Assembly (NCBI GenBank): GCA_964022135.1
Contig: CAXIBD010000009.1
Span: forward strand, 491-64,490
Reading direction: 5' to 3'
From: an uncultured Sphingomonadales bacterium
Lineage (GTDB): Bacteria > Pseudomonadota > Alphaproteobacteria > Sphingomonadales > Sphingomonadaceae
Length of the DNA stretch: 64,000 nt
Shown here piece after piece: positions 19,326-62,971 of this stretch. A program made the position numbers and the translations under genes. Position 1 is the first letter of the stretch. Each line of letters opens with the position of its first letter. The notes beneath the pieces were generated by a model. That model did not search any database, was not told the DNA's origin, and saw only the letters and a list, made by a program, of their open reading frames with translations.

Positions 19326-19355
19326 TACGTATTTTAGATGAGTGATATTTACGCA
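19326..19355. promoter_or_regulatory. dyad operator copy A
   Basis: TACGTATTTTAGATGAGTGATATTTACGCA: CGTA at pos 3-6 and TTACG at pos 24-28. Divergent promoter region between the hydratase (18314..19210) and the flavin-reductase/wHTH gene. Confidence 0.6.
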
Positions 19356-19458
19356 TTATGCGCCCACAATGATATTATAATTGCATATTTCGTATTTTTC
19401 AGGTAGTTTTCGGTTATGGGCGAAAAGCCAATTCCTGCAATCTATGCTGAGGCAAAAA

Positions 19459-20412
19459 ATGACAAATGTTCGACTGGACACTCAGGAATTTCGTAATGCT
19501 CTCGGATCATTTGCAACGGGCGTGACCATCGTCACGACAGCAACAAACCCGACCGAACCTGTAGGAGTGACAGCCAGTAGCTTCAATTCGGTCTCCCTGG
19601 ATCCTCCCTTGGTTCTTTGGTCTCTTGCCAAAAATTCACTGTCGCTTGATGCATTTCGAAATAGCGGTCATTTTGCGGTTCATATCCTGTCCTGCCTCCA
19701 GGAAAACCTTTCCAACGCATTCGCCCGTTCAGGCACCGACAAGTTCGCCAATGTGGATTGGGGATCAGGCGCGATTGGATCGCCTGTGCTGAATGAATTT
19801 GCAGCCAGATTCGAATGCCGGACTGTTCACCAATATGAAGGTGGGGACCATATTATTTTTGTCGGTGAGGTCATCGCCTTCGACAAGCGCGACCACCCTC
19901 CTCTTGTGTTCCATGGTGGAAACTATGCTGAAACTCGGTCAAAAACATTCATTGATGAGGCTCCAACGGTAGAACCGGAACAAGCTCGGTTTACCGAAGA
20001 TTTTTTCCTCTATCTATTGTCGCGCGCGCATTTTCAGACTTCTGAAATTACTCGCACAAAAACAGAAGAGCTTGGCCTCAGTCAAACCGAATATCTAGCG
20101 ATTGCAGTCCTCGGTATGAATGCACCGCTACCTGCCGAAGAGTTGATTGCCCGGTTACAACACACAGGCCATGCGCCAGATGATACCGAAATAGCGAATA
20201 TGATAAGCAAAGGCCTCATACAGGACGCCCAAGGCGCACTTGCTCTAACTCTATCATCGCGCAGCATATTCATTTCGACCCTGTCGGTGGCCAAGGCTTT
20301 CGAGGATGATTTGCTCGATCATTTTACGCCTGGAGAAATTGCAGACACTAAACGCATTCTCAAAAAGATCATCGAGTTGACTGGAGATAATATCCCGAGT
20401 CTCTGGGAATAG
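19459..20412 (+). CDS. fusion protein: flavin reductase-like FMN-binding domain + C-terminal MarR-like winged-helix domain
   Basis: ORF 19381..20412, start preferred at ATG 19459 (GAGG 6-7 nt upstream). N-terminal FRNALGSFATGVTIVTT...GVTASSFNSVSLDPPLVLWSL (HpaC/HsaB-type flavin reductase). C-terminal GLSQTEYLAIAVLGMNAPLPAEELIARLQ...ISKGLI (wHTH-like). Confidence 0.7.
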   Translation: MTNVRLDTQEFRNALGSFATGVTIVTTATNPTEPVGVTASSFNSVSLDPPLVLWSLAKNSLSLDAFRNSGHFAVHILSCLQENLSNAFARSGTDKFANVDWGSGAIGSPVLNEFAARFECRTVHQYEGGDHIIFVGEVIAFDKRDHPPLVFHGGNYAETRSKTFIDEAPTVEPEQARFTEDFFLYLLSRAHFQTSEITRTKTEELGLSQTEYLAIAVLGMNAPLPAEELIARLQHTGHAPDDTEIANMISKGLIQDAQGALALTLSSRSIFISTLSVAKAFEDDLLDHFTPGEIADTKRILKKIIELTGDNIPSLWE

Positions 20413-20432
20413 ACAGACCGAGAAAACTTCAG

Positions 20433-20470
20433 AAAAAAAATAGACGCCCATTGCTTTCTAGCAATGGACG
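20433..20470 (-). terminator. rho-independent terminator for the Rieske gene (possibly bidirectional)
   Basis: A8 run at 20433-40 (U-run on the minus transcript), stem CCATTGC (20448-54) / GCAATGG (20461-67), loop tttcta. Lies between convergent genes. Confidence 0.65.
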
Positions 20471-20507
20471 CCAGTTATTCAATTCAGGAGAAAAGAATCT
20501 TTTCAGG

Positions 20508-21584
20508 TCAGGCCGCGTCTTCCCATGGGTCACGCGAGGTGCCTTTGGAGATATAATGACCATTCACACGTTTCTGGAAATCGCTTGCCCGCTCGCGTGC
20601 ATTGAAGAACTGCTTGTACCAAATCCTGACTTTATCAAAGGGGCCGTCGCCCTTCACCATCATCGGGCTCAGACACGGCCGCTTATCGGCCCATATTTCA
20701 AAGTCTTGTGCAAAGGCATCTAATCCGGCCTTTTCATATTCGCGTGCAATAGAAATATCTGCCTCAGTTGGCTTTTCGTTGGGGGATTTGACGAGCAAAC
20801 CATACCATACTTTCACCAAACCATCGTCGACTGGCGTATGTGCGATCAGCATATGAGAGGGATAATCGCCCTCCATTGTCGACTGCAGAATTCCGGGGCC
20901 GGTATACCACGTGTCGTTGGTCATCCCCTCCTCCTTGCTGCTCAGTGTGCGATGACCCGCTTTCAAGACCTGCCAACAGACATGATCTTCAAAGCGATTT
21001 TCGAAGATCGCCATATCTTCGCTGCCGTGTACCGGCACCAAATGCCCCTTGTCCGCAATATTGTCGACAATCTCCTGCGGATGACTGTTCAGTTCGCCAA
21101 GCGGCTCAATATTCCATTTGACCCATTGCGAATTGTCATAATTTTCAAAGGCCGGTAAAGCATAATCCGGCTCGCCGCCTTCTTCATCATGCCATATCCA
21201 CAAACAGCCAGCCCTTTCGATAACTTTCCAGTTTTTCAAACAGGCTTTCTTCGGAATCGGGCCGGGAGAATAGGGAATGTCGTTGCATTTGCCATCGGGA
21301 CCAAACCGCCAAGCATGATAGGGGCAACGGATATTGTCACCTTCAACATGACTTTTGTCCTTCACCACGTAAGAAGTCGTGTTTTTGGCCAGATGAGTGC
21401 CCATATGGGGGCAATAGGCTTCGACAAGAAATACACGTCCGCTCTGGCCACGATAGAGCACCATGTCTTCACCAAAATAGCGCACCGCAAGCGGCGTATC
21501 TGTGACCTCGGCAGAGCTCGCGATCATGAACCAACCACGCGGATAGGTATATTCGCCCAATTTGTAATCTGCGGTCGTCGCCAT
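20508..21584 (-). CDS. Rieske [2Fe-2S] non-haem iron oxygenase, KshA-like (3-ketosteroid 9alpha-hydroxylase family)
   Basis: ORF to 21647, trimmed to ATG 21584 (GGAGAG upstream). YPRGWFMIASS N-terminus; Rieske motif CPHMGTHL...CPYHAWRF; iron motif DNIADKGHLVPVH (D-x3-D-x2-H-x4-H). Confidence 0.8.
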   Translation of the reverse strand: MATTADYKLGEYTYPRGWFMIASSAEVTDTPLAVRYFGEDMVLYRGQSGRVFLVEAYCPHMGTHLAKNTTSYVVKDKSHVEGDNIRCPYHAWRFGPDGKCNDIPYSPGPIPKKACLKNWKVIERAGCLWIWHDEEGGEPDYALPAFENYDNSQWVKWNIEPLGELNSHPQEIVDNIADKGHLVPVHGSEDMAIFENRFEDHVCWQVLKAGHRTLSSKEEGMTNDTWYTGPGILQSTMEGDYPSHMLIAHTPVDDGLVKVWYGLLVKSPNEKPTEADISIAREYEKAGLDAFAQDFEIWADKRPCLSPMMVKGDGPFDKVRIWYKQFFNARERASDFQKRVNGHYISKGTSRDPWEDAA

Positions 21585-21689
21585 AGTCTCTCTCCGAGTC
21601 TCGTTCTTATGCGCCCTTTTACATAAATCGTAGAGATTGATCAACACTATTGATAAATTAAACGCCTACCGGCCATATGTTTTGATAAA

Positions 21690-21719
21690 CGCGTAGTTTA
21701 AATATTCATATGCTGCGCA
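21690..21719. promoter_or_regulatory. degenerate dyad operator copy H
   Basis: CGCGTAGTTTAAATATTCATATGCTGCGCA: same spacing, but the right half is CTGCGCA instead of TTACGCA. Upstream of the KshA-like gene 20508..21584. Confidence 0.35.
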
Positions 21720-21730
21720 CCCGGGCTTAG

Positions 21731-22225
21731 CTAAATCTCGAGCGGATGTTCTTCGTCGGTAATTCGTACAACCCGGCCGTTATATTTGACAGTCTGAACG
21801 GCGATGGACGTTTCAACATGATGCACGCCGGGCATTGCCAGAATCTGTTCGGAAGCAGTAGCGTGCAACTGACCAAGCTCGTTGAACAGACAGATCGCGA
21901 ATATATTGAAGCGCCCCAACGTTATCAAAACACCTGTAATACCTGGAATCTTGGACACCTTGCTGGAGATATCTTTCACCTTATCGATATCCGCTTGAAT
22001 ACCAATAAAAGCCAGCTTGTCATCTTTTTGGAGGTCGGGGCTGGTGACTGCAGTGAAGGCGATAAGCCGCTCCTGTTGCAATTTTTTGATCCGACCGCGA
22101 ACGGTTCCTTCGGTGACTCCAAGATCGGTTGCAATCTTACGGTTTGACAGCCGCGCGTCGTCTGACAATATCTCGATTAACTTGTAATCGAGTTCATCCA
22201 ATTCGGGCTTCTCGAACTTATTCAC
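21731..22225 (-). CDS. Lrp/AsnC family transcriptional regulator
   Basis: 164 aa with a GTG start overlapping the upstream stop (GTGA). LDYKLIEILSDDARLSNRKIATDLGVTEGTVRGRIKKL HTH plus a RAM-like C-terminal domain. Confidence 0.85.
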   Translation of the reverse strand: MNKFEKPELDELDYKLIEILSDDARLSNRKIATDLGVTEGTVRGRIKKLQQERLIAFTAVTSPDLQKDDKLAFIGIQADIDKVKDISSKVSKIPGITGVLITLGRFNIFAICLFNELGQLHATASEQILAMPGVHHVETSIAVQTVKYNGRVVRITDEEHPLEI

Positions 22226-22701
22226 GCTGTATCCTTCGTCACAATCGGAGCTACGTCAAATCTGTACTTCACTACATCTACTGCGATTGCCGGCATCATT
22301 GACCCAATGCCGCGAATGGTTGAAATCTTTTCCGAAATGAATGCCTGCAGTTCATCAAAACTTTTAAGTACGACCAATATGTCGATATCATATCGACCGG
22401 TTACCAGGTGAACTGCGAAGACTTCATCCAGTTTCGCCAGCTCCTGGGCAACTTCCGACGCAGCCCGGCTCTCCACTTCAATTGCGATTTCCAATAGGAC
22501 GTCATATCCATGTGCCCGAAAGTCCGACACCGCAACCACCCGGAGTTTATCGGCATTTTCCAGCCGGCGAATTCTTGCTGAAACAGTAGCTGCTGTAAGC
22601 TTAAGTCGATTTGCGATTTGCTGATTGGTCGCACGCCCGTTTCGGCGCAGTTCGCCAATGATGGAACGGTCAATGTCATCTATTTCGAATTTTTCATTCA
22701 T
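22222..22701 (-). CDS. Lrp/AsnC family transcriptional regulator
   Basis: ORF to 22725; MNEKFEIDDIDRSIIGELRRNGRATNQQIANRLKLTAATVSARIRRL. The start is uncertain (22701, 22719 or 22725). Confidence 0.8.
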   Translation of the reverse strand: MNEKFEIDDIDRSIIGELRRNGRATNQQIANRLKLTAATVSARIRRLENADKLRVVAVSDFRAHGYDVLLEIAIEVESRAASEVAQELAKLDEVFAVHLVTGRYDIDILVVLKSFDELQAFISEKISTIRGIGSMMPAIAVDVVKYRFDVAPIVTKDTA

Positions 22702-22817
22702 GCGAAGTCTTTGTTTCATTTTCACTTATGAATCAACTCCACATTGAACAAGAGCATCGGGACGGAAGACCTGGTGCATAGGCAACCGGATTGAATCCAA
22801 GCATCCAGCGAGAATGA

Positions 22818-24098
22818 TCATTCCCCACCGGCAAGTGCGACTCTGTTGGTCTCCAGATGTCGCGCTCCGAGAAGTGTCAACAGCCCGCCGACCATGCCTG
22901 TCGGGATAATAATGGTCAGTGCCCAGCGTAGCGATATGGCATTGTTTCCGAACAATTCACTGAGCGCGCCGGTTGCCCATGGGCCGATGATGAAGCCTAG
23001 AAAAGTGGTAACCATGATGAACAACGCCGTGCTCGTCGCGCGAAACCTGTCCGGAACCAAATATTGCAAGGATTGCATTATGCCTATCGACCAGCCGCCG
23101 CCGAGCAGACCGGCCGGGATCGCAAGCATTTTGGCGACAAATAAGGTATCACTCCAAGTCGAGGCCAGAATGCAGACCGATGCAGCGAGCATCGCCATTC
23201 CTGCCATTAGCAACGGACGCTGCATACCGCCTCTGGCCAGTTTGTCAGATACGGCACCAAAAAGCAGCATCCCTGATAGACCGGCCAAGCCAAAATATAG
23301 CCCAAATGTTGTACTGGCTTCGGTCAAGGGAACTTCATAGACGCGGTGAAACAGGGTCGGCCCCCAAAAGCCGAAACCAACGCCGGACAGGGTTGCCAAA
23401 CCCATGCCGAACATCATCAGTACATAGGATCGTGCCTTGATCAACCGCCGAATGAGCGGCAATAGCGGCACTTGATTCAGTTTTGTCGTTATTTGCAGCC
23501 TCGCTGGCTCTCGGACAATGAGGAAGGCAATACCAGAGATAATCACACCGGGAACAGCCATCGCATAAAATGCCATCCGCCAACTGTAGGCTTCGGCGAT
23601 GGCAGGCCCTGCCGCATAGCCGGTTATCTGGCCAAAATAGACAGCAAGACCCAATATCGCAAAGACCATCCCACGTTTCTCTGGCCGAAAATAGTCCGAC
23701 AACAGCGAATAGGCAGGCGCAATAAAGGCTGCCTCTCCAACACCGACACCAAGCCTGGCCAGCGCCAACATCCAAGGTCCATTTGCTGCACCTGAAAGTC
23801 CAGTGAACAAACTCCAAATCAAACAACCGACACAGATAATCACAATGCGGGAAGATCTGTCGGCAAGACGTGCTATAGGTATTGCGATTGTGGTGTATAA
23901 CAAGGCAAACGCAGGCCCCATGAGAAGCCCCATAAACTGGTCTCCCACCCCAAATTCAGCCTTGATCGGATCGACAAGGCCAGAGATCAGGTATCGATCT
24001 GCGTAATTGAAAATATAAATGAAAAGCAGGACAATGAGAACGACCCACGGGTTGGACTTTCGCCCTGTTACTGCCGAAGCGGCTATAGTTGCGGCCAT
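22818..24098 (-). CDS. MFS transporter
   Basis: 426 aa, 12 predicted helices, MFS loop motif LADRSSR between TM2 and TM3. Confidence 0.85.
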   Translation of the reverse strand: MAATIAASAVTGRKSNPWVVLIVLLFIYIFNYADRYLISGLVDPIKAEFGVGDQFMGLLMGPAFALLYTTIAIPIARLADRSSRIVIICVGCLIWSLFTGLSGAANGPWMLALARLGVGVGEAAFIAPAYSLLSDYFRPEKRGMVFAILGLAVYFGQITGYAAGPAIAEAYSWRMAFYAMAVPGVIISGIAFLIVREPARLQITTKLNQVPLLPLIRRLIKARSYVLMMFGMGLATLSGVGFGFWGPTLFHRVYEVPLTEASTTFGLYFGLAGLSGMLLFGAVSDKLARGGMQRPLLMAGMAMLAASVCILASTWSDTLFVAKMLAIPAGLLGGGWSIGIMQSLQYLVPDRFRATSTALFIMVTTFLGFIIGPWATGALSELFGNNAISLRWALTIIIPTGMVGGLLTLLGARHLETNRVALAGGE

Positions 24099-24142
24099 GT
24101 ATTATCCTTGCCCGTTAAGTTTACAAAATGCAGCCATGACAA

Positions 24143-24904
24143 TCAGTCGCGCATTTGTGTGCCGCCATTTACGTGATAAACTTGCCCGTTGATCCAAGCG
24201 CCGTCATCCGACGCCAACATCGCCACCATCGCTGCGATATCATCGGGCTGCCCCAAGCGAACGTGTGGAACCGCCTTCAAACCCGATTCAACCTGCTGAT
24301 CGGTCATATGCTGCTGGACTGCCTCGGTCAGGACAAGGCCCGGACAAATGACATTCGCCCGGATACCTTTCTTGCCCCATTTGGCTGCGACATGGCGGGA
24401 CAACGCATGTACGGCATTTTTGGCCATCGGATACGCGACTTGCCAAGAAGAACCTCCCGATGCCGCACCGGAACTGGTATAAATCATCGCTCCGCCGCCA
24501 TTTTCCAGCATCACAGGAAGCGCGGCCTGCGTCGCAATCAAATGGCTTTTTGCATTGATCGCGACGGATTTGTCGAACACATCCAGCGAACAATCCAGCG
24601 CATTCACATCACCTACTGTCCCGCCGGCCAAGTTGGAATGAAAGAAATCAAGAGCGCCGAATTCTGAAACCGCCTTGTCTACAATAGCCTGCTGCGATTC
24701 CACTGACGTTCCATCCAGATGAACACCGACAGCGCTTCCGCCTCTGCTTCTAATATCCGCAGCGACGTCTTTGGCCCAATCTTCCATGATGTCTCCGATG
24801 ACGACATGGGCACCTTCTTCCGCCAAACGTCGAGCAGTGGCAGCACCGATTCCCCGCCCGCCACCTGCAACAATCCCCACTTTTCCTTTAAGTCCGCGCA
24901 TCAT
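24143..24904 (-). CDS. SDR family oxidoreductase (candidate hydroxysteroid dehydrogenase)
   Basis: GKVGIVAGGGRGIGAATARRL cofactor motif and Y-x3-K (YPMAK). Confidence 0.8.
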   Translation of the reverse strand: MMRGLKGKVGIVAGGGRGIGAATARRLAEEGAHVVIGDIMEDWAKDVAADIRSRGGSAVGVHLDGTSVESQQAIVDKAVSEFGALDFFHSNLAGGTVGDVNALDCSLDVFDKSVAINAKSHLIATQAALPVMLENGGGAMIYTSSGAASGGSSWQVAYPMAKNAVHALSRHVAAKWGKKGIRANVICPGLVLTEAVQQHMTDQQVESGLKAVPHVRLGQPDDIAAMVAMLASDDGAWINGQVYHVNGGTQMRD

Positions 24905-24930
24905 CTCTTCTCCCTAACCCCGCAGGCGTC

Positions 24931-26460
24931 TCAGCGTCGCCGTGCCGCGAGAGACATATTGTTCCACCAAGGCTGTGCCGTTTCGACCTGCGAAGCCAAT
25001 CGGAACAATGTCGCTTCAGCACCATATCGACCGCTCATCATCACCCCGATTGGCAGCCCGCTTTCAGACATGGCAAGTGGCAGCGACATGCTGGGCTGCC
25101 CGGTAATATTGTAAAGGCCCGTAAACGGCGTGAATTGGGAGACTGCTTCACCCCATTGCCTCATGTTTTCATGGTCCAGATCGTGGATGCCGGTTTTTGG
25201 CGGCGGAGTGGCCAGAGTGGGGGACAGAATTATATCGTAATCCTGCATGAATATCGCCATATCATAAGCCGTCTGCTGGAATATGTTATGCGCCCGGGAA
25301 ACCGACATGCCATCCATTTTTTTGCCAATTCCATAGAATACCATAGTGACCTTTTCTAGCACATCCGCTGATGGCGCTATCCCGGTGATCTTGGCTCGAT
25401 CATCAATATCGGCGGCGAGGGAGGTCGATAGCACCGCAAAATTCGCTTCTCCAATAGCGGCCATATCGACTTTGGGTTGCGCTTCCTCGACATGATGTCC
25501 CAGATCTTCGAGCAGTTTAGCTGCCGCTCGGGTCGCCATGATACATTCCGGGTCGACAGGACTGCCAGCTGGCGGCGCAAGCACTAGGGCTACGCGCAAT
25601 TTGCCTGGCGACTTGTTTAGCTGAGACATGAACGAACCGTCCGGGGATGGCGCAGAATAGCGTGACCCTGGCTCCAGGCCATGGGTTAGGTCCAGCAGAA
25701 GCGCTGAATCTCGGACGGATCGCGTAACGGCATGATGGACGGACATCCCGCCCCAGCCTTCGGTGCGATTGGGGCCCATGGGCACACGCCCGCGGCTGGG
25801 CTTTAGACCGAACAATCCGCAGCAAGAAGCCGGGATACGGATGGAGCCACCGCCGTCGGTCGCATGAGCCGCAGGGATGATGCCGGCCGCCACTGCCGCG
25901 GCCGAGCCGCCGCTTGATCCACCTGCAATGTGCTTCTCATTCCAAGGATTGCGTGTAACGCCAGTTGCGAGCGATTCTGTTGTACCGCTGAGACCGAATT
26001 CCGGCGTTGTCGTTTTGCCGAAAATCACTAAGCCTGCAGCCTGATGTCGCTTCACCAGCTCAGACGTTACGGTCGCCCGATAGCCATTGTATGATCGACT
26101 GCCCTGCCCCGTTCGTTCACCGGCTATATGCGTGTGAAGATCCTTGATTAGCCAAGGCACGCCTTTCAGAGGGCCGTCTGGCAAGCCGTTTTTTATTGCA
26201 GCGCGACCATATTCATACAGCTTCTGTGCGATAAAGTTATAGCTTGGGTTTGCCAATTCAGTCCGGGCGATAGACATTTCCAGAAGCTCTTCGGCCGAAA
26301 CCTGTCGCTTACGTACAAGATCAGCCAAACCGGTTGCGTCATGCGTATCGAGCAAGATCTCTCTATTAATCCTAGGGTTTGCCATCAGCCGACCTGCTGA
26401 TGTAGCAAGTCCCGCAGCGGCAACGCTGCTTGCCAGAACCGAACGACGGGTCATGTTCAC
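24931..26460 (-). CDS. amidase (amidase-signature family) with twin-arginine signal peptide
   Basis: MNMTRRSVLASSVAAAGLATSAG; AS block GGSSGGSAAAVAAG; the start overlaps the upstream stop (ATGA at 26457-60). Confidence 0.85.
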   Translation of the reverse strand: MNMTRRSVLASSVAAAGLATSAGRLMANPRINREILLDTHDATGLADLVRKRQVSAEELLEMSIARTELANPSYNFIAQKLYEYGRAAIKNGLPDGPLKGVPWLIKDLHTHIAGERTGQGSRSYNGYRATVTSELVKRHQAAGLVIFGKTTTPEFGLSGTTESLATGVTRNPWNEKHIAGGSSGGSAAAVAAGIIPAAHATDGGGSIRIPASCCGLFGLKPSRGRVPMGPNRTEGWGGMSVHHAVTRSVRDSALLLDLTHGLEPGSRYSAPSPDGSFMSQLNKSPGKLRVALVLAPPAGSPVDPECIMATRAAAKLLEDLGHHVEEAQPKVDMAAIGEANFAVLSTSLAADIDDRAKITGIAPSADVLEKVTMVFYGIGKKMDGMSVSRAHNIFQQTAYDMAIFMQDYDIILSPTLATPPPKTGIHDLDHENMRQWGEAVSQFTPFTGLYNITGQPSMSLPLAMSESGLPIGVMMSGRYGAEATLFRLASQVETAQPWWNNMSLAARRR

Positions 26461-30123: not shown

Positions 30124-30276
30124 CTGGAATTTTCCGTCACAACCGAAGGATAGGATCGAATCGACAAAGAATGCGATTCGCAGCGGCAGCATATTGACCC
30201 AGAACTTTGGATTTGCGTGTTCATAATCCTCCTAAAGATAAGTTCCGGGTGCATTAACACCTCAAATATCACCATA

Positions 30277-30306
30277 TGCGTATTTTTATATCATATATTT
30301 TACGAA
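30277..30306. promoter_or_regulatory. dyad operator copy B
   Basis: TGCGTATTTTTATATCATATATTTTACGAA, about 155 nt upstream of the CoA-ligase operon start. Confidence 0.6.
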
Positions 30307-30351
30307 TATAGCAAGCCCATAGCTGCCCCATCGTCAAATTTGACAAATTTC

Positions 30352-32061: not shown

Positions 32062-32091
32062 TTCGTAATATTTATTACCTATATTTACGCA
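32062..32091. promoter_or_regulatory. dyad operator copy C
   Basis: TTCGTAATATTTATTACCTATATTTACGCA, in the divergent promoter region between the SDR (31281..32045) and the OYE gene (32161). Confidence 0.65.
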
Positions 32092-32160
32092 TGCTATTGA
32101 CATATAGCATATAGATGCGTCAATTGCGTTATATAAAAATATGCACAGGAGAGCGATCCA

Positions 32161-36647: not shown

Positions 36648-36677
36648 TGCGTATTAAAAATTCAATTAAATTACGTA
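36648..36677. promoter_or_regulatory. dyad operator copy D
   Basis: TGCGTATTAAAAATTCAATTAAATTACGTA, ending 17 nt before the start codon of the TonB-dependent receptor gene. Confidence 0.6.
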
Positions 36678-40029: not shown

Positions 40030-40059
40030 TGCGTAATCTATGAACATATATATTACGCA
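40030..40059. promoter_or_regulatory. dyad operator copy E (perfect 9-bp arms)
   Basis: TGCGTAATCTATGAACATATATATTACGCA. With flanking bases, TTGCGTAAT / ATTACGCAA are exact reverse complements. Divergent promoter region between the NTF2 gene (39522..40016) and the SDR gene (40083). Confidence 0.7.
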
Positions 40060-45467: not shown

Positions 45468-46278
45468 TTAGAAACGCAAGGGAATAACGGTTGAATTCGT
45501 CGGTTCGCTCCAGCTGCACCCAGTGACCAACCTTGTTAAAGATGATACACCGCACGTCTTCGCAAGCGTCATAAAAATAGTCGATGCCGGTCAAAGGCAT
45601 AAATTTTTCGTTCCGGCCCCAGAATAATAAAATGGGCATAGTCAGCTTGGAAAGATGAGGCCGGACATTATGCGTCTTCATTCGCGCCAGCACATCTTTC
45701 GGTTGCGTACGCGCAACTTCAAATCGTTCGGCAACCAGCTCGTCGGTAACATGAACCGGATCAAATACGAGGCTCTCGATCAACCTGCGCTGATCGTCAG
45801 GTCCAAAATCCAGGCTGCCAAAAGACGATCGCATATTGGCAATACCGGGCATTGCGAAATAGACATCCAGTTCCTCAATGCAGCCTGGTGCCATCAACAC
45901 AAGTTTGGTCACCATTTCTGGATGGTCTGCAACCAACTGGATCGCAATCCCGCCGCCGAGCGAGTTGCCAACCAGAATCGCCTTTTCGATGCCGTGCATA
46001 GACAGAGCTTCATAAAGCGTGTCGGTAAATAGCGTTAAGGTGTAATCTATTCCTTCTGGCTTGGAAGATTGTCCGTAACCAATGAGATCGGGCAGAATGA
46101 CACGATAACCGGCCTCGACAAATGCATCAACATTCTGACTGAAATTCGAAGTCCCGGAAGCACCCGGTCCACTACCGTGGATAAACACCACCGGCATTCC
46201 ATCATCGGGGCCTGCTTCAGTGATATGAATCCCATACCCGGAACTTAGTTCATATGTTTTTTGCTCGCCGATCAGCAT
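45460..46278 (-). CDS. alpha/beta hydrolase, meta-cleavage product hydrolase (HsaD/TesD family)
   Basis: ORF to 46350, trimmed to ATG 46278 (GAGGAGG 5 nt upstream). VVFIHGSGPGASG, nucleophile elbow GNSLGGG, catalytic His in KVGHWVQ. Confidence 0.8.
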   Translation of the reverse strand: MLIGEQKTYELSSGYGIHITEAGPDDGMPVVFIHGSGPGASGTSNFSQNVDAFVEAGYRVILPDLIGYGQSSKPEGIDYTLTLFTDTLYEALSMHGIEKAILVGNSLGGGIAIQLVADHPEMVTKLVLMAPGCIEELDVYFAMPGIANMRSSFGSLDFGPDDQRRLIESLVFDPVHVTDELVAERFEVARTQPKDVLARMKTHNVRPHLSKLTMPILLFWGRNEKFMPLTGIDYFYDACEDVRCIIFNKVGHWVQLERTDEFNRYSLAFLND

Positions 46279-46355: not shown

Positions 46356-46385
46356 TTCGTAATATTTATTGCCTTGAAATACGCA
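46356..46385. promoter_or_regulatory. dyad operator copy F
   Basis: TTCGTAATATTTATTGCCTTGAAATACGCA, in the divergent promoter region between the lower-pathway operon (minus) and the 16-gene plus-strand operon. The first 15 nt are identical to copy C. Confidence 0.65.
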
Positions 46386-50752: not shown

Positions 50753-50755
50753 TCC

Positions 50756-54688: not shown

Positions 54689-54706
54689 ATCAAAGGACTG
54701 AACACC

Positions 54707-55858: not shown

Positions 55859-56763
55859 TGGGAATTTGTGACGGACGGACGGTTATTATAACCGGTGCAG
55901 CAGGCGGGCTTGGCAAGGCTTATGCGGTAGCATTTGCCTCCGAAGGCGCCAATGTCGTGGTCAACGATATCGGCACTTCCCTGGGCGGTGAAGGCCGGGA
56001 TACCAGTGCGGCAGACGCCGTGGTTGAAGAGATCAAGGCGGCGGGCGGTAGCGCTTTCGCCAATTATGACGATGTGACCGACTGGGATGCAGGCAAACGA
56101 ATTGTGGATGCCGCCGTCGAAGCCTTTGGTGACCTCCATGTCGTAGTAAATAATGCCGGGATTGTCCGCGACCGGATGTTTGTGTCCGCAACTCTCGAAG
56201 AATGGGATGCAACCATGCATGTGCATTTACGCGGCCATTTTTGTATCGCACGGCATGCCGTGGATTATTGGCGCGCCCGGTCCAAGGAAGGTCATGAAAT
56301 TGATGCCCGGATCATAAACACAACATCCGGCGCGGGCCTTCAAGGCTCGATAGCCCAAGCAGCCTATTCGACGGCGAAAGGCGGCATCGCGTCGCTTACA
56401 CTGGTTCAGGCGGCAGAGCTTGGGCGCTATGGCATCACCGCCAATGCGCTTGCACCTTCCGCACGGACCCGCATGACCGAACAAGCTTTTGCGGACAAGA
56501 TGGCGACCGGAGGTGAAGCTTTTGACGTAATGGATCCCGCCAACATCGCGCCAACAGTCGTCTGGCTGGGTTCGGTTCAGTCAAAAGACGTCACCGGCTG
56601 TATCTTCGAACTCGAAGGCGGCAAAATCATGCTGGAAGATGGCTGGCGAGAAGGGCCGGTGGTCGATGCCGGTGGCAAATGGAATCCAGCTGACGTCGGC
56701 GACGCCGTCTCTGGATTGATGAAAGAGCGCAACCCTCCTAGAAAAGTGTGGGGCACCGCCTGA
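55858..56763 (+). CDS. SDR family oxidoreductase (hydroxyacyl-CoA dehydrogenase-like)
   Basis: VIITGAAGGLGKAYAVAF...VVNNAGIVRDR...YSTAKGG. Confidence 0.75.
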   Translation: MGICDGRTVIITGAAGGLGKAYAVAFASEGANVVVNDIGTSLGGEGRDTSAADAVVEEIKAAGGSAFANYDDVTDWDAGKRIVDAAVEAFGDLHVVVNNAGIVRDRMFVSATLEEWDATMHVHLRGHFCIARHAVDYWRARSKEGHEIDARIINTTSGAGLQGSIAQAAYSTAKGGIASLTLVQAAELGRYGITANALAPSARTRMTEQAFADKMATGGEAFDVMDPANIAPTVVWLGSVQSKDVTGCIFELEGGKIMLEDGWREGPVVDAGGKWNPADVGDAVSGLMKERNPPRKVWGTA

Positions 56764-57818
56764 TGGATTTCGCATTTACCGACGAACAGGCGATGATAGC
56801 CGAGACCGCCCGGCAGTTTTTCACCGAAACGGCGACTAGCAAGCGCACCCGCGAGGCAATGAAGGTCGATGGCTTTGATCGGGACACGTGGCGGTCATTC
56901 TGTCAGGATCTGGGCCTGAGCGGTCTTCTGATATCTGAAGAATTTGGAGGCTCAGGCCTTGGTATGGTCGAATTTGCCAATGTCGCAGAGGCAGCTGGAG
57001 CGCAGGTTGCCGCCATACCCCTTCTTGGTCAGACCATGGTCGGTCAAGCCATCGCGGCAGGTGGCAGCGATGAACAGAAATCCGCTTGGCTACCCAGATT
57101 GGCAACGGGTGAGATTGTCGCGACTGCCAGCGGCAATGCTGAACTGAATGCCAAAGGCAATATTCTTTCAGGGACCATCAAATTCGTCCCGCATGGGAAC
57201 ATCGCGGATATGTTTATAGTGTCCGATGGCAAAAATGCCTGGATCGTTGATGGGAGCGCCAATGGACTTACGGTGGAAACTCCAACCACCATGGACCAAA
57301 CGCGGCCGCTCGCGACTTTGACCCTTGATAATGTCGATGCAGACCCGTTGGCCGATAGCGATGCCGCCTTGGCAGCCGGCAAGTCTGGCGGCTGGATCTG
57401 TCTTGCTGCGGAAGCTCTCGGTGGCGCTCAGGCCTGCCTTGATCGCACCGTCGCCTATTCAAAGGAACGCGTCCAATTCGGACGAGCGATTGGCAGTTTT
57501 CAGGCTTACAAGCACCGCGCAGCCGATATGATGATCGAGATCGAACAGGCAAGGTCTGCAGTCTATTGGGCGGCCTGTGCCGTCGATGAAGGTTCGGAAG
57601 ACGCCATGATGGCACTTCATGCCGCAAAAAGCTTCTGTGCCGACAGTTATTTCAAATGCGCAGGTGACATGATCCAGTTGCATGGCGGCATCGGTTTTAC
57701 CTGGGAGCATGATGCGCATCTGTTTTTCAAACGAGCGCGCTCGATCCAGACCTTATTGCAGAACAGCGTCTGGCATAACGAACAAATTGCGACCATGATA
57801 TTGGGAGAAGCCGCATGA
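56763..57818 (+). CDS. acyl-CoA dehydrogenase family protein (first of second ACAD pair)
   Basis: ORF from 56748, trimmed to ATG 56763 (TGATG overlap). MDFAFTDEQAMIAE; FGRAIGSFQAYKHRAADM. Confidence 0.8.
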   Translation: MDFAFTDEQAMIAETARQFFTETATSKRTREAMKVDGFDRDTWRSFCQDLGLSGLLISEEFGGSGLGMVEFANVAEAAGAQVAAIPLLGQTMVGQAIAAGGSDEQKSAWLPRLATGEIVATASGNAELNAKGNILSGTIKFVPHGNIADMFIVSDGKNAWIVDGSANGLTVETPTTMDQTRPLATLTLDNVDADPLADSDAALAAGKSGGWICLAAEALGGAQACLDRTVAYSKERVQFGRAIGSFQAYKHRAADMMIEIEQARSAVYWAACAVDEGSEDAMMALHAAKSFCADSYFKCAGDMIQLHGGIGFTWEHDAHLFFKRARSIQTLLQNSVWHNEQIATMILGEAA

Positions 57819-58993
57819 GACTGGGTTTCTCGAAAGCAGAAGAAGATTTTCGCGCGGAATGTGCCGACTGGCTGACTGCGCAGATGGCCGGAGAATTTTC
57901 CGACATTAAAGGCATTACGACGCTCACCGAAAAAGCAGAACGGCGCAAGGAATGGGAGCAACAGCTTGCGGCCCACAAATGGTCTTGTATCGGTTGGCCC
58001 GAAAAATGGGGTGGCCGAGGCGCCAGCCTTGCCGAGCAGGTTATTTTCGCTGAGGAATATGCCCGTGCGGGCGTGCCGGGGCGAGTGAATCATATCGGCA
58101 TCGAGCTGGCCGGACCGACGATATTAACATTCGGGACCGACGAACAGAAGCAGCAATTCCTGCCTGATATCGCGGCGGGAAGAACAATTTTCTGTCAGGG
58201 CTTTTCAGAACCCAATGCAGGCTCAGATCTCGCCGGCGTTCGGACCAAAGCACAACTGGAAAATGGCAAATGGGTCGTGAACGGACAGAAAATATGGACT
58301 AGCCTGGCCCATATTTCTGACTGGATTTTCGTGATTGCGCGGAGCGAAGAAGGCACCAAAGGGCCAAGGGGACTGACGTTCCTGATGATGCCGATCGACC
58401 AGCCCGGTATTGAAATTCGCGGGATTCAGCAGATCAACGGCGATGCCGAATTCAACGAAACATTCTTCACAGACGCGACTTGCCCGGAAGACAGTTTGAT
58501 TGGTGCGCCTGGCGAAGGCTGGAAAATTGCCATGGGACTGCTGGCCTTTGAACGCGGTGTGTCCACCCTGGGTCAGCAAATGGGGTTCCGCAACGAACTC
58601 GACGCGATCATTGCTGCGGCAAAAGCCAACGGCAGCGCCAATGACCCCCTCATCCGGCAGCGGATCGCCAAGGCCGAAATTGGTCTGCAACTCATGCGTT
58701 ATGGTGCTCTTCGGATGCTCTCCAATAGCGATCATTCCAAAGTTGATGGCGCGGCGCTTACCTATAAGATCCAGTGGGCAAGCTGGCGTCGGTCGCTTGG
58801 TGAACTTGGCATGGATGTCCTCGGGCAAGCGGCCGAGGTGACTGACAATCCGGCCTATGAATGGGGGATGCTTCCCAATCTGTTCCTGTTTTCACGTTCA
58901 GATACTATTTATGGCGGAACCAACCAGATCCAGCGGAATATGATTGCTGAACGCGCACTTGGCATGCCGCGGGAACCAAGAGGTGACACATGA
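57815..58993 (+). CDS. acyl-CoA dehydrogenase (second of second ACAD pair)
   Basis: 392 aa; FSEPNAGSDLAGV, QKIWTS; ATGA overlap with the upstream gene. Confidence 0.8.
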   Translation: MRLGFSKAEEDFRAECADWLTAQMAGEFSDIKGITTLTEKAERRKEWEQQLAAHKWSCIGWPEKWGGRGASLAEQVIFAEEYARAGVPGRVNHIGIELAGPTILTFGTDEQKQQFLPDIAAGRTIFCQGFSEPNAGSDLAGVRTKAQLENGKWVVNGQKIWTSLAHISDWIFVIARSEEGTKGPRGLTFLMMPIDQPGIEIRGIQQINGDAEFNETFFTDATCPEDSLIGAPGEGWKIAMGLLAFERGVSTLGQQMGFRNELDAIIAAAKANGSANDPLIRQRIAKAEIGLQLMRYGALRMLSNSDHSKVDGAALTYKIQWASWRRSLGELGMDVLGQAAEVTDNPAYEWGMLPNLFLFSRSDTIYGGTNQIQRNMIAERALGMPREPRGDT

Positions 58994-59766
58994 GCATTCC
59001 CGCATATCCCGAACCAAGAAATTTGCTGAAGGATAAAACCGTCGTCGTCACCGCTGCTGCGGGAACAGGAATCGGCTTTTCTGCGGCCAAGCGTGCCGCC
59101 GAGGAAGGCGCCAAGGTTCTGATCAGCGATTTTCATGAGCGCCGTCTCGGCGAAGCGGCCGACCGCATTGCAGATGAGATCGGGGAGCGCCCCTTCACAT
59201 GCGTTTGTGATGTGACCAATCAGGACCATGTAGATGGATTGCGCGATGCTGCCATCCGCGAGCTCGGTCATGTAGATGTCCTCATCAACAATGCGGGCCT
59301 TGGCGGAGAAGCACCGGTCGTCGATATGACAGACGAGCAATGGCACCGCGTTGTCGATGTGACGATGACCAGCGTATTTCGAATGACCCGCGCCTTTCTG
59401 CCGCACATGCAGGAACGGAAATCCGGGGCAATCGTCAACAACGCCTCTGTTCTGGGCTGGCGCGCACAGAAGGGACAGGCGCATTACGCTGCTGCAAAAG
59501 CCGGCGTAATGGCATTCACCCGTTGTTCCGCCGTCGAAGCGGCCGAATTTGGCGTCCGGATCAATGCCGTCGCACCAAGCATCGCCATGCACGCTTTTCT
59601 CGCCAAGGTAACGACCGATGAATTATTGGCAGAACTCTCAGCCAAAGAGGCTTTTGGCCGCCCGGCAGAAGTGTGGGAAGTGGCAAACGTCATGATGTTC
59701 CTCGCATCCGATCTCTCCAGCTACATGACCGGCGAGATTTTATCGGTGTCCAGCCAGCGGGCTTAA
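58990..59766 (+). CDS. SDR family oxidoreductase
   Basis: VVVTAAAGTGIGFSAAKRA; YAAAK. Confidence 0.8.
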   Translation: MSIPAYPEPRNLLKDKTVVVTAAAGTGIGFSAAKRAAEEGAKVLISDFHERRLGEAADRIADEIGERPFTCVCDVTNQDHVDGLRDAAIRELGHVDVLINNAGLGGEAPVVDMTDEQWHRVVDVTMTSVFRMTRAFLPHMQERKSGAIVNNASVLGWRAQKGQAHYAAAKAGVMAFTRCSAVEAAEFGVRINAVAPSIAMHAFLAKVTTDELLAELSAKEAFGRPAEVWEVANVMMFLASDLSSYMTGEILSVSSQRA

Positions 59767-59776
59767 GGAGCAGCAA

Positions 59777-60241
59777 ATGGTCAAGATTTACGAAAGCCCC
59801 CGAGATCTGATCGGCCAGGAAGGGACCATGTTCGGTCCCAGCAACTGGCTGACGATTGATCAGGAACGGGTCAACGGCTTTGCCGATGTAACCGGCGATC
59901 ACCAGTGGATTCATGTGGATGTGGAAAAGGCCAAGGACGGACCGTTCGGCACTACCATCGCGCACGGCTATCTGACGATGAGCCTGGTCAATGTCTTTTT
60001 ACCTGAACTTGTCGAGGTGCGCGGGTTCAGTCACGCTGTCAATGTCGGTGCGGACCGACTTCGCTTTTTGGCACCTGTGACCGTCGGCAGCCGCATTCGC
60101 GCAATTGGCGAGATTGTCGCGGTCGAGGAAATCAAGGGCGGTATCCAGCAGGTTGTCCGCGTCACGATCGAGATTGAAGGCAGTGAAAAACCTGCCTGCA
60201 TCATTGATACGATCAGCCGCTATTACCCGGAGGATATATGA
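59777..60241 (+). CDS. MaoC-like (R)-specific enoyl-CoA hydratase (hotdog fold)
   Basis: FADVTGDHQWIHVDVEKA...TIAHGYLT hydratase-2 motif. Confidence 0.8.
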   Translation: MVKIYESPRDLIGQEGTMFGPSNWLTIDQERVNGFADVTGDHQWIHVDVEKAKDGPFGTTIAHGYLTMSLVNVFLPELVEVRGFSHAVNVGADRLRFLAPVTVGSRIRAIGEIVAVEEIKGGIQQVVRVTIEIEGSEKPACIIDTISRYYPEDI

Positions 60242-60618
60242 AGACCGTTACCGCCGTCGACAAAATAAAGGTCGTGGAGACTTATATTGCCTCCTACAAC
60301 AAAGGCGACCTCGAGGGTATAGTCTCCATTTTTGCTGATGACGCTGCGGTCGAAGATCCGGTGGGAACGCCCTTGTTGCGTGGCAAAGAAGCAATCAGAA
60401 CTTTCATGCAGGCCGGCGTTTCCATGGGCGCGCAATTGCGCCTGGAGGGCTCTATACGCTGCGCCGGCGATTATGCCGCATTTCCGTTCGTCGTCGAACT
60501 GGAACTCGACGGCAAACTTACTTGTATCGAGGTAATCGATATATTCAAATTTGATGAGCACGGGAAAGTAATCGAGATGCGTGCATTTTTTGGCCCAGAC
60601 AACATGAAAGCTGCTTAA
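60238..60618 (+). CDS. ksi: 3-ketosteroid Delta5-isomerase (ketosteroid isomerase)
   Basis: 126 aa. GDLEGIVSIFADDAAVEDPVGTP and IDIFKFDEHGKVIEMRAFFGPDN closely parallel my recollection of Comamonas testosteroni KSI ([47 protein letters not shown]). Tyr/Asp/Asp catalytic positions are conserved. Confidence 0.9.
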   Translation: MKTVTAVDKIKVVETYIASYNKGDLEGIVSIFADDAAVEDPVGTPLLRGKEAIRTFMQAGVSMGAQLRLEGSIRCAGDYAAFPFVVELELDGKLTCIEVIDIFKFDEHGKVIEMRAFFGPDNMKAA

Positions 60619-60619
60619 G

Positions 60620-62161
60620 TTGATCGACGGTCCAAAAGATTTGCCGCCGACGATTCCCCATCTTGCCAAGCGAGGTGCGGAAGTCTTTGGTGCGATGCCT
60701 GCCATTCTCGAGCATGGAGAAACATGGAGCTATCAGCAGCTCTGGGCCCATATAAGCCGCGCTGCTTCCGCTATGCTGAAAGCCGGGATCTCTCATGGAG
60801 ACCGCATAGCAATCTGGGCGCCGAACCGGCGAGAATGGATTGTTGTCGCCATTGCAGGCCAGCTGACCGGGGCAGCGATCGTGCCGCTCAATACGCGGCT
60901 TAAAGGGCAAGAGGCGTCCGATATAATCCGCCGCACATCGGCCAAAGCGCTGTTTACCGTAAAGGATTTTCTGGGTACCAACTATCCCGAAATGATCGCC
61001 GGGGAGGATTTGCCCTCGCTTTCGATGACAATATGCTTCGACAGTGGCTGGGCAGATTTTATTGCGACCGGCAGCTATGATGACGAAGCCGTCGATCAAG
61101 CACTGAACGCCTTAAATGCGAGCGATGTCAGTGACATCATGTTCACGTCTGGAACGACCGGTATTCCCAAGGGCGTATTGACGACCCACGACCGCATCAT
61201 CCCGATGTTCGCAAACTGGACGCAGCTGGTCGATTTGCGCGAAGGCGATCCTTATCTTATCATCAATCCCTTCTTTCACAGCTTCGGTTTCAAGGCCGGG
61301 TTTGTGGCCGCGCTTCTGGTCGGTGCCCTTGTTGTGCCTATGGCTGTTTTCGATGTCAAAAAGGTAATTACCCATATCGAGCAGGATCGCATCGCTTTCA
61401 TTCCCGGGCCGCCTACCATATTTCAGGCGCTTCTGGCTGAATTGGCAGGACGCAGCTTTGATTACAGTTCTCTGCATTCCGCGATGACGGGAGCAGCTAC
61501 TGTCCCACCGTCCCTGATCCGCCGGATGCATGACGAATTGGGGTTTGAACGTGTGCTGACCGCTTACGGCATGACCGAATGTACGAATATCACTTCCTGT
61601 GTTCCAGGCGACTCCCCCGAATTAATCGCCAACAGCTGCGGCAAGGCCATACCCGGCATGGAGGTCCGCATTGCAGATGAAGAAGGCAAGGAGGCTCCGC
61701 GCGAGGAAACCGGTGAAATCCATGTCCGCGGTTACGGCGTCATGCTGGGTTATCTGGATGATCCGGAAGCTACTGCAGAAGCGATTGATCCCGATGGCTG
61801 GCTTCACACCGGTGATGTCGGCACGATGGATGAAAACGGTTATGTTCGCATCACAGACCGTAAAAAAGACATGTATATCTCAGGCGGTTTCAACTGTTAT
61901 CCCGCCGAAGTCGAAAAGCTGTTGGCCAACCATCCGGCGATCGAAATGGTCGCCGTTATCGGCGTTCCAGACGACCGGATGGGAGAGGTCGGCAAAGCCT
62001 TTGTGGTGCTCCGGCCCGGCGTGACGCTGACCGATAGCGACCTGATCAGCTGGGCACGCGACAACATGGCAAATTACAAAGTGCCGCGTGTCGTCAGCTT
62101 TGTCGAACGCCTCCCCCAAAATGCAGCAGGAAAGGTCGTGAAGACGGAACTGCGCATCTGA
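60620..62161 (+). CDS. acyl-CoA synthetase (FadD3 / ScdA-like HIP-CoA ligase)
   Basis: TTG start 2 nt after the ksi stop. IMFTSGTTGIPKGVLTTH, YGMTE, SGGFNCYP. Last gene of the plus-strand operon. Confidence 0.75.
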   Translation: MIDGPKDLPPTIPHLAKRGAEVFGAMPAILEHGETWSYQQLWAHISRAASAMLKAGISHGDRIAIWAPNRREWIVVAIAGQLTGAAIVPLNTRLKGQEASDIIRRTSAKALFTVKDFLGTNYPEMIAGEDLPSLSMTICFDSGWADFIATGSYDDEAVDQALNALNASDVSDIMFTSGTTGIPKGVLTTHDRIIPMFANWTQLVDLREGDPYLIINPFFHSFGFKAGFVAALLVGALVVPMAVFDVKKVITHIEQDRIAFIPGPPTIFQALLAELAGRSFDYSSLHSAMTGAATVPPSLIRRMHDELGFERVLTAYGMTECTNITSCVPGDSPELIANSCGKAIPGMEVRIADEEGKEAPREETGEIHVRGYGVMLGYLDDPEATAEAIDPDGWLHTGDVGTMDENGYVRITDRKKDMYISGGFNCYPAEVEKLLANHPAIEMVAVIGVPDDRMGEVGKAFVVLRPGVTLTDSDLISWARDNMANYKVPRVVSFVERLPQNAAGKVVKTELRI

Positions 62162-62170
62162 GCCACTTAA

Positions 62171-62923
62171 TCAGGAGACCGTGGCACCGCCGTCAATAAC
62201 CAGAGGATGGCCTGTCACAAAGCTGGCTTGATCGCTGCATAGCCACAAAACGGCGCTGGCAATCTCTTCCGGCTGCCCCATTCGGCCAAGCGGTGTCATA
62301 TTCTCCATCGCTGCACGATACTGAGGATTGCTGGCGACCGCTTCCGTCATTGCGGTTTCAATCACGCCCGGACAGACACAATTCACACGAATATTCTGTT
62401 TCGCCCATTTCAGAGCGCCGTGGCGGGTCAATCCGACGACACCATGTTTGGTCGCCACATAGGCGGGCTGCGAGGGATTGCCTGTAAGCCCGTTTATGGA
62501 GGAGGTGTTCACAATCGCGCCGCCGCCGCTTTGCAGCATGGCACCGGCTTCGGCACGCATGCAATGCATCACCCCGGTCAGGTTTATGCTGAGAGCACGA
62601 TCCCAGACATCTTCGTCCCATTCGTTCGCCTGGATATTTGTAATCCCTGCGTTGTTGTGACCGTAATCCAGCCGACCATAAACTTTGATGGCCTGTGCGA
62701 CCAGGGCATTCACGGCACCGGCGTCCGAGACGTCGCACTTCACAAAAATGGCGTTGCCGCCAGCTTGCTTGATCAGATCAACGGTTTCGTCACCACCCTG
62801 CACATTGACATCGCTAACAACTACGGAGGCCCCTGACTGACCGAAAGCAAAAGCCGTCGCCCGTCCAATTCCGCTTCCCGCGCCGGTAATGAGAGCAACT
62901 TTCCCGTCAAAATCGTAGTTCAT
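62171..62923 (-). CDS. SDR family oxidoreductase (candidate hydroxysteroid dehydrogenase)
   Basis: ORF to 62983, trimmed to ATG 62923 (MNYDFDGKVALITGAGSGIGRATAFAF); YVATK. Confidence 0.8.
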   Translation of the reverse strand: MNYDFDGKVALITGAGSGIGRATAFAFGQSGASVVVSDVNVQGGDETVDLIKQAGGNAIFVKCDVSDAGAVNALVAQAIKVYGRLDYGHNNAGITNIQANEWDEDVWDRALSINLTGVMHCMRAEAGAMLQSGGGAIVNTSSINGLTGNPSQPAYVATKHGVVGLTRHGALKWAKQNIRVNCVCPGVIETAMTEAVASNPQYRAAMENMTPLGRMGQPEEIASAVLWLCSDQASFVTGHPLVIDGGATVS

Positions 62924-62941
62924 GCCAATCCTTTCTTGAAT

Positions 62942-62971
62942 TGCGTAATATTTAGCATAGGGTAAAACGCA
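62942..62971. promoter_or_regulatory. dyad operator copy G
   Basis: TGCGTAATATTTAGCATAGGGTAAAACGCA, in the divergent promoter region between the SDR (62171..62923) and the OYE gene (63010). Confidence 0.6.

Follow-up and report, generated by a model that had tools for sequence, protein, structure and literature searches.

We analyzed a 64-kb stretch of DNA (hereafter the window, in whose positions all site coordinates are given) from an uncultured Sphingomonadales bacterium (contig CAXIBD010000009.1). The region from 16 to 64 kb is a sphingomonad-type steroid/bile-salt degradation cluster, and its promoter regions share a 30-bp inverted repeat, TGCGTAAT-N14-ATTACGCA (hereafter the dyad), that occurs in seven copies. 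The cluster encodes two KshA-like Rieske oxygenases, an amidase, a major facilitator superfamily (MFS) transporter, a TonB-dependent receptor, several SnoaL_4 proteins, KstD-like flavoproteins, TesD, TesE, TesF, TesG, TesB, a CoA transferase, and proteins for HIP beta-oxidation. Its GC content (53.6% for positions 16001-64000) compares with 61% in the adjoining 1-16 kb, which holds peptide/D-amino-acid genes and an XRE-cupin regulator. An Lrp/AsnC pair represents the only transcription-factor genes in the cluster. No TetR_N match was found among the ~60 open reading frames (ORFs) scanned, in agreement with a first-pass annotation of this DNA that had reported no TetR gene in the window.

The same annotation had listed seven dyad copies at 19326, 30277, 32062, 36648, 40030, 46356, and 62942, and all are present there. 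We scored the window with a symmetrized position weight matrix (PWM) built from these seven sites. The sites and two weaker copies are as follows (no strand is assigned to the dyad; SDR, short-chain dehydrogenase/reductase gene; OYE, old yellow enzyme gene):

Site A, 19326..19355: between an enoyl-CoA hydratase gene (- strand, start 19210) and a flavin reductase gene (+ strand, start 19459); 28.8 bits
Degenerate copy (CGCGTAG...GCGCA), 21690..21719: between the Lrp1 stop and the kshA start; 11.3 bits
Site B, 30277..30306: upstream of a minus-strand operon only; 34.9 bits
Site C, 32062..32091: between an SDR (- strand) and an OYE (+ strand), its edge 17 bp from the SDR start codon; 34.5 bits
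Second copy in the gap of site C, 32116..32145: 54 bp from site C, weaker, absent from the first-pass annotation; 20 bits
Site D, 36648..36677: between a SnoaL-like gene (- strand) and the TonB-dependent receptor gene (+ strand), adjoining the receptor's AGGAGA ribosome-binding site; 35.8 bits
Site E, 40030..40059: perfect consensus, occupying the middle part of a divergent gap of 66 bp, with start codons 14 and 24 bp away; 34.0 bits
Site F, 46356..46385: between tesD-EFG (- strand) and an SDR-tesB-HIP operon (+ strand); 33.1 bits
Site G, 62942..62971: between an SDR (- strand, ATG 62925) and an OYE (+ strand, ATG 63010); 26.4 bits

The pattern CGTA-N17-WWACG matches the window at these seven places only, against a mean of 0.68 in dinucleotide-preserving shuffles, and none of 100 shuffles reached 13 strand-matches. 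With up to two mismatches allowed, TGCGTA-N18-TACGCA gave 10 matches where 1.84 were expected, namely, the seven sites, the copies at 21690 and 32116, and one coding match at 45704. The seven sites score 26-36 bits and everything else in the window at most 20 bits, with 32116, 21690, and 24000 (10.5 bits) as the next-best positions. As had been proposed from the first inspection, all seven sites lie between genes, and from 19.2 to 63 kb no gap of more than 100 bp is without a copy. Six copies lie between divergent genes, a count that includes site G only after correction of the gene starts. The distance between half-site centers, given earlier as 21 bp, had to be revised to 22 bp for the 8-mers and 24 bp for the hexamers (CG to CG). 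These observations support the dyad as a real, non-random cis-element common to the promoters of ring-cleavage, HIP, uptake, and side-chain operons.

The motif is also found at orthologous steroid/bile-salt promoters in Parasphingorhabdus, Sphingopyxis, Novosphingobium, Sphingobium, and many metagenomic sphingomonads. With the reductase gene as anchor, a PWM scan of loci in 12 sphingomonad genomes located sites at orthologous promoters. Queries with Lrp1 and kshA led to clusters on megaplasmids. The Novosphingobium sp. KACC 22771 megaplasmid has seven sites in 50 kb, N. aromaticivorans pNL2 has sites at record positions 221061, 231675, 263875, 326474, and 342974, and S. herbicidovorans pMSHV carries the motif at orthologous promoters. 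The pNL2 scan covered 150-350 kb, and its non-steroid stretch (150-200 kb) has no PWM site. A plasmid search with the reductase fusion protein returned only paralogues of <45% identity and no orthologous cluster. Enrichment of PWM hits in related steroid loci and conservation in orthologous clusters had been suggested at the outset as checks on the motif, and it passed both. In data that were not motif-selected, sites of at least 20 bits number 21 in 0.50 Mb of steroid loci (42 per Mb) versus 2 in 1.10 Mb of other loci (1.8 per Mb), and the orthologous clusters of many genera keep the motif. In the motif-negative loci (L005-L024, L018), no variant dyad of the same architecture was found.

Based on 43 non-redundant sites from more than 25 loci, the consensus is aTw-TGCGTAAt-(AT-rich)-aTTACGCA-wAt, in which the arms aTw-TGCGTAAT and ATTACGCA-wAt are separated by a 14-bp AT-rich spacer. 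Nearly all information lies within the hexamers TGCGTA/TACGCA, and the flanks are not conserved. Many sites have a -35-like TTGAC(A/T) hexamer in the middle of the spacer, in either orientation (e.g., L095 6197, L174 4616, L163 395, L217 24747, L006 13712, and L081 13626). Among metagenome contigs, the perfect 16-base consensus occurs at 120 loci, 15 of which are in steroid clusters; the others look like chance matches or unrelated conserved sequences. Some of these non-steroid perfect matches recur as identical 30-mers (e.g., L099, L105, L114, L138, L094, L102, and L166). Two such 30-mers, TGCGTAATGGTTGACATCATTCATTACGCA on contigs of ~52-54% GC and TGCGTAATAAACTAACAAAGAAATTACGCA on contigs of ~30% GC, are conserved sequences of other organisms.

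Counterparts were found for most of the individual copies. Orthologues of site A lie 5' of the reductase gene in seven loci (L001, L002, L003, L013, L015, L021, and L023). At the position equivalent to the degenerate copy, good sites are present in L002 (19 bits), L004 (23.7 bits), L129 (perfect arms), L205, L209, L213, and L217. The operon behind site B encodes a CoA ligase, an amidohydrolase, a Rieske oxygenase, an amidase, an SDR, and an MFS transporter, followed by Lrp2, Lrp1, and kshA; this site is kept in L001, L002, L205, and pNL2 (L219 21061). Further counterparts correspond to site C (L014 19141 and L217 17526), site E (L088 2702 and L217 11870), site F (L224 5189, pNL2 L222 26474, L163 5906, and L186 2078), and site G (L081 9933, L015 4462, and L209 16169), where the OYE gene from 63010 extends past the window end. 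Second copies like that at 32116 lie 62-63 bp from a strong copy in four loci (L010 4396/4459, L013 9855/9918, L088 4505/4567, and L187 5564/5627). The distances over five loci (54, 62, 63, 63, and 63 bp), small as these numbers are, correspond to five to six helical turns, and the second copies hint at cooperative binding or wrapping.

Operators are generally recognized by being over-represented, confined to intergenic DNA, and conserved at orthologous promoters, and the dyad shows all three features. We consider it very probable that the dyad is the operator of a regulator, and almost certainly it is the putative site of one shared regulator in the steroid clusters of many sphingomonads. Of the first-pass proposal, the part that called for one regulator and a new motif stands, and the part that favored the reductase fusion as this protein does not. 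The positions of the sites bear on the mode of action. At sites C, D, and G, the dyad edge is 17 bp from a start codon and directly adjoins the ribosome-binding site, and in the 66-bp gap of site E ribosome-binding sites adjoin the dyad on both sides. Because the edges of sites C, D, E, and G lie 14-24 bp from start codons, transcription of these genes must begin within or upstream of the dyad. Across all sites, 14 to ~115 bp separate the dyad from the start codon. Repressor operators typically show such variable positions overlapping core promoters, which favors repression as the likeliest mode; this range of distances fits badly with an activator that depends on a fixed geometry.

We propose a model in which one regulon for steroid/bile-salt catabolism in Sphingomonadales would be controlled through the 30-bp dyad as its operator. 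A regulator complex with two-fold symmetry would touch both arms, 22-24 bp apart, over an AT-rich and probably bent spacer. Copies that adjoin ribosome-binding sites would overlap the -10/+1 region of overlapping divergent promoters, where the bound regulator would block RNA polymerase, and a pathway-derived ligand would free the operator. The regulator would most likely be a hetero-oligomer encoded by the two overlapping Lrp/AsnC genes (21731-22725). We give this explanation as a whole, in which the pair is linked to the dyad by association, slightly less than an even chance of being correct. The two genes are as follows:

22222..22725, - strand: Lrp2, candidate regulator subunit; Pfam HTH_AsnC-type and AsnC_trans_reg; 4-bp overlap with Lrp1
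21731..22225, - strand: Lrp1, candidate regulator subunit; Lrp/AsnC by Pfam; recognition helix GVTEGTVRGRIKKL conserved

This pair had been named as a second candidate from the start, and it is viable and now the best one, by association only. Lrp2 is kept beside Lrp1 in all related clusters. Among the Lrp1 hits, which span 63-99% identity, the four orthologues with retrieved context (63-71% identity) are all in steroid clusters, three of them in the order Lrp2, Lrp1, motif, kshA. More distant Lrp pairs (40-53%) also accompany perfect motif copies, and the Lrp1 recognition helix GVTEGTVRGRIKRL is kept down to ~50% overall identity. The pair is linked to the motif in many loci (L002, L004, L006, L014, L118, L129, L145, L174, L200/201, L205-L216, L217, L219, L222, and L224), and both co-occur in KACC 22771, pNL2, and S. 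herbicidovorans. No cluster with enough sequence coverage has the motif without the pair. The steroid region of pNL2 contains three Lrp pairs (L219 28533-29572, L219 35899-36941, and L222 41810-42789; genes SARO_RS18940/45, RS20400/05, and RS19395/400), one of which has a dyad in its own divergent promoter. Two of these three pairs share the identical protein WP_011906860.1, which indicates that the duplication is recent.

When steroid loci were counted, nine had both the pair and the motif, none the pair alone, five the motif alone, and seven neither (one-sided Fisher p ~0.007, for loci that are not independent). The 150 ORFs left unmatched in motif-positive loci include no further recurrent family of transcription factors. 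Because even near-identical strains carry the cluster in different genomic surroundings, a regulator encoded within it is to be expected. Lrp proteins are described as binding grouped sites that face the same side of the DNA at intervals of two or three helical turns, as wrapping the DNA, and as forming hetero-assemblies (PMC2995911). By analogy, phasing of this type would be compatible with the 22-24 bp arm spacing and the 54-63 bp distances of second copies. We regard the pair, a candidate by association, as the binder of the dyad with a confidence that stops just short of even. A broader proposal, which we hold tentatively and with some doubt, is that catabolism of the steroid nucleus and of bile salts throughout Sphingomonadales is under the master control of the heteromeric Lrp/AsnC pair, with two heterodimers placed head-to-head on the arms, further copies five to six helical turns away wrapping the promoter, and a steroid- or conjugate-derived ligand. 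If true, this would add a new ligand class and a new operator geometry to the otherwise amino-acid-sensing Lrp/AsnC family and would make the pair the alphaproteobacterial counterpart of KstR/KstR2.

Several observations weigh against this assignment. The pair is tied to the dyad through association, a link confounded by cluster type and by phylogeny. The ligands known for Lrp proteins are amino acids and not steroids. L011 has an Lrp pair with helices identical to those of the motif-positive L014 and no motif in 20 kb, and the motif is likewise missing from L018, whose Lrp pair is a distant one. In several clusters (L014 and L209), no site is present in the promoter of the Lrp operon itself, and the pNL2 steroid region also encodes TetR, LysR, LuxR, and GntR regulators. 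Scans of eight gaps with the sigma-70 consensus gave no consistent -35/-10 placement and were not relied on for the promoter positions, which are putative. Classical Lrp-dimer sites are semi-palindromes of 13-15 bp with an AT-rich center (PMC2995911), unlike the dyad arm, which is a sharply conserved, non-palindromic hexamer with a CG center; positions 2 and 5 break the hexamer symmetry in 74-83 of the 86 arms.

A serious rival to the Lrp pair is a regulator encoded away from the cluster. The operator would be the same, its binder would belong to another family (TetR, IclR, GntR, AraC-type, or a protein with widely spaced DNA-binding domains), and the pair would control only the conjugate/amidase part. 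This is possible, if on balance rather doubtful. It would account for the arm geometry, since a single hexamer in each of two arms that lie 24 bp apart is not what Lrp dimers usually bind (PMC2995911), and for the motif-free Lrp pair of L011. The pair always lies beside amidase, MFS, and amidohydrolase genes, and its amino-acid ligand class would suit sensing of glycine or taurine from conjugates. Moreover, other sphingomonad steroid regions hold AraC, TetR, and LuxR regulators (PMC12882949, PMC12239570). However, more than 25 loci show no second regulator family recurring near the sites, neither the window nor strain JC815 has the XRE-like gene seen in some lineages, and the apparently mobile cluster keeps intact sites in different contexts.

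The protein preferred in the first-pass annotation was the product of the gene behind site A:

19459..20412, + strand: flavin reductase with a C-terminal MarR-like domain, 317 aa; site A upstream; matches 5zc2 over its full length

For this fusion to read the dyad, its dimeric core would have to hold two winged helix-turn-helix (wHTH) domains at a distance of two helical turns. In at least eight genera the fusion gene is preceded by site A, and the C-terminal domain is MarR-like in fold, as its family profile matches the MarR structures 3cdh (2.7e-7) and 7kfo (1.4e-5) and an AlphaFold2 model (pLDDT 81) has the MarR-type order of helices and wing. An enzyme-wHTH fusion could also give widely spaced half-sites, as BirA does. 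Nevertheless, the fusion is a full-length homologue of the C1 reductase of Acinetobacter baumannii p-hydroxyphenylacetate hydroxylase (HPAH; 5zc2), with E values of 6e-66 for the family profile and 8e-24 for Foldseek at ~35% identity, and NCBIfam NF045919 assigns it to the HPAH reductase component. The MarR-like domain of C1 acts as an autoinhibitory and allosteric effector module, and the equivalent of the recognition helix packs on the NADH site through pairing of E248 and E251 with R20 (PMC11618861). In the alignment, the fusion has R12 at the position of R20 and D240 and E243 at those of E248 and E251.

A dyad-binding role would call for a basic recognition helix, an arginine in the wing, and co-occurrence with the motif, none of which was found. 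The net charge of the wHTH segment (residues 222-265) averages -3.1 over 54 orthologues, helix positions 241-250 vary, and the acidic wing has no arginine, a profile incompatible with recognition of an invariant hexamer. The motif is kept where the cluster reductase has only 169-172 aa and lacks the MarR-like domain (L205-L208, pNL2, and pMSHV), and ~10 sphingomonad loci have a fusion orthologue and no motif. We consider binding of the dyad by the fusion very unlikely and conclude that it is a putative enzyme and a regulated target, not the regulator. It is probably a substrate-gated TesA1/HsaB reductase. The fusion and C1 share the full-length architecture of flavin reductase plus MarR-like domain, including the equivalents of R20, E248, and E251; the fusion gene lies in a steroid cluster, and its presumed effector is a steroid intermediate instead of p-hydroxyphenylacetate (HPA). 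The analogy suggests that a steroid substrate may turn on this reductase as HPA turns on C1.

The dyad might also be read without a dedicated operator-binding protein, as a bidirectional promoter element of RNA polymerase with an alternative sigma factor of the extracytoplasmic function (ECF) type. The ~16 nt between the inner arm edges resemble the -35/-10 spacing of ECF promoters, the CGTA core resembles some ECF -10 boxes, and the sites mark promoters in both directions. We rate this reading as highly improbable: strict two-fold symmetry is a signature of dimeric binding, CGTA is always in the upstream arm in either direction, where a -10 box would not be located, site B is just as symmetric although it has a gene on one side only to serve, the start-codon distance varies over 14-115 bp, and the cluster has no sigma/anti-sigma gene. 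Least credible of all is an RNA hairpin (leader or terminator) or a dispersed repeat without regulatory role. The arms could form an 8-bp stem with a 14-nt loop in read-through transcripts, but among 73 arm pairs that deviate from the consensus only 7 are still complementary and 66 are not. As deviations in one arm are not compensated in the other, the element is read as double-stranded DNA, and for this lack of covariation the hairpin was rejected. In addition, no T-run follows the dyad, the flanks are not conserved, and the dyad lies upstream of genes, not downstream. The sites are also kept at orthologous promoters across genera while nearby DNA diverges.

Compared with known systems, the putative operator resembles those of the actinobacterial TetR repressors KstR and KstR2 in its distribution: one short palindromic operator before most steroid operons, often between divergent genes, with repression likely. 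The motif itself differs, as first noted, and both KstR-type boxes are absent from the cluster. In the window, the KstR pattern TnnAACnnGTTnnA has one chance-level match at 9757, outside the cluster (0.58 expected), and the KstR2 pattern AnCAAGnnCTTGnT has none. The KstR/KstR2 operators are contiguous 14-bp palindromes and define two regulons, whereas the window dyad has two arms 14-18 bp apart and one motif covers ring A/B and HIP genes. Regions bound by Lrp/AsnC proteins may be similar in having multiple sites two or three turns apart in AT-rich, bent or wrapped DNA (PMC2995911), with the dyad arms separated by about two turns; they differ in that known dimer sites are degenerate and each dyad arm is a sharp TGCGTA hexamer. 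In the literature searched, no description was found of a paired, presumably heteromeric bacterial Lrp regulator of steroid genes.

EdcR, a TetR protein of the Caenibius tardaugens estrogen cluster, is likewise a sphingomonad steroid-related repressor, and its palindrome covers the -10 boxes of divergent promoters (PMC8700777). Its operator TnnCnnTACnAnTnGTAnnGnnA is a contiguous 23-bp palindrome (PMC8700777), the dyad has a different sequence, and the regulator family is different. TesR of Comamonas testosteroni is described, as cited in PMC12239570, as a cluster-wide activator of steroid genes from the LuxR family. The likeness lies in cluster-wide control of proteobacterial steroid degradation. 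The difference is that TesR is a LuxR activator, and no such gene occurs in the window cluster. We know of no comparable dyad in the TesR system. Short inverted arms about two helical turns apart with a non-conserved spacer are seen in the operators of NikR (GTATGA-N16-TCATAC) and BirA (bioO). Such dyad geometry implies DNA-binding domains held apart by an oligomeric core; the protein families and sequences are unrelated, and the analogy is one of geometry only.

The literature searched for the sequence and for sphingomonad steroid regulators contains no prior description of the motif. Work on sphingomonad bile-salt clusters names candidate regulator genes and no shared operator (PMC12882949, PMC8399759), and for the Sphingobium sp. 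Chol11 cluster the Lrp/AsnC pair (NCHOL11_RS15860/65) has been reported and the motif so far has not (PMC12882949). Where Chol11 has this pair, the bsd I cluster of C. tardaugens is described as having a TetR gene. The dyad represents a new putative operator and regulon of a familiar kind, which may have an unusual regulator. The motif delimits the regulon in genomes and metagenomes, predicts additional pathway genes (receptors, transporters, and SnoaL-like dehydratases), and offers a concrete DNA probe for the regulator as well as parts for steroid or bile-salt biosensors. Because N. aromaticivorans DSM 12444 has the motif (pNL2) and Sphingobium sp. Chol11 has the Lrp pair, the hypothesis should be directly testable in cultured strains.

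Copies of the Lrp pair were also found on conjugative plasmid backbones, at L220 11522-12567 (pSHV1) and L221 11522-12567 (pEP1), adjoining MucR, HIRAN, and HU genes and, on pSHV1, insertion sequence (IS) elements. Neither has a motif within 24 kb; they are IS-flanked copies of the cluster pair and hence uninformative. An XRE-like gene of ~286 aa with a weak HTH_3 match lies at the cluster edge, divergent from a D-aminoacylase operon, only in some freshwater or soil sphingomonad lineages (L209 194-1054, L213 102-927, and L216 1-280) and is frameshifted in L213. It was rejected as the common regulator, being absent from the window and all loci other than L209-L216. The XRE-cupin gene of the window was rejected as well, since it lies outside the cluster in peptide-utilization DNA of 61% GC with no motif nearby. 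This gene (11776-12429), a PuuR-like combination of XRE-HTH and cupin domains, stands amid beta-lactamase-fold peptidases, a POT peptide transporter, and a dipeptide epimerase-like gene.

The closest relatives of the window are Parasphingorhabdus, with a metagenome-assembled genome (MAG) at 96-99% protein identity and strain JC815 at ~80-90%. The DNA that precedes the reductase gene is unrelated in the near-identical MAG (L001 1-9800) and carries relaxase/ArdC-like genes in JC815 (L002 1-8600), from which the cluster appears to move between genomic contexts. At 16318-17406, on the left edge of the low-GC cluster, there is a 362-aa ORF without a Pfam/NCBIfam match that is absent from the near-identical MAG locus (L001). 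On the other side, the JC815 cluster continues with OYE, a TonB receptor, and hsaA and then stops at polA, with no regulator gene, TetR included, on that side. The motif precedes each of these three JC815 genes, with one of the copies (34.8 bits) at the cluster boundary. In JC815, the gene of the candidate partner oxygenase (hsaA/tesA2) lies past the point that corresponds to the window end (L081 13734-14912).

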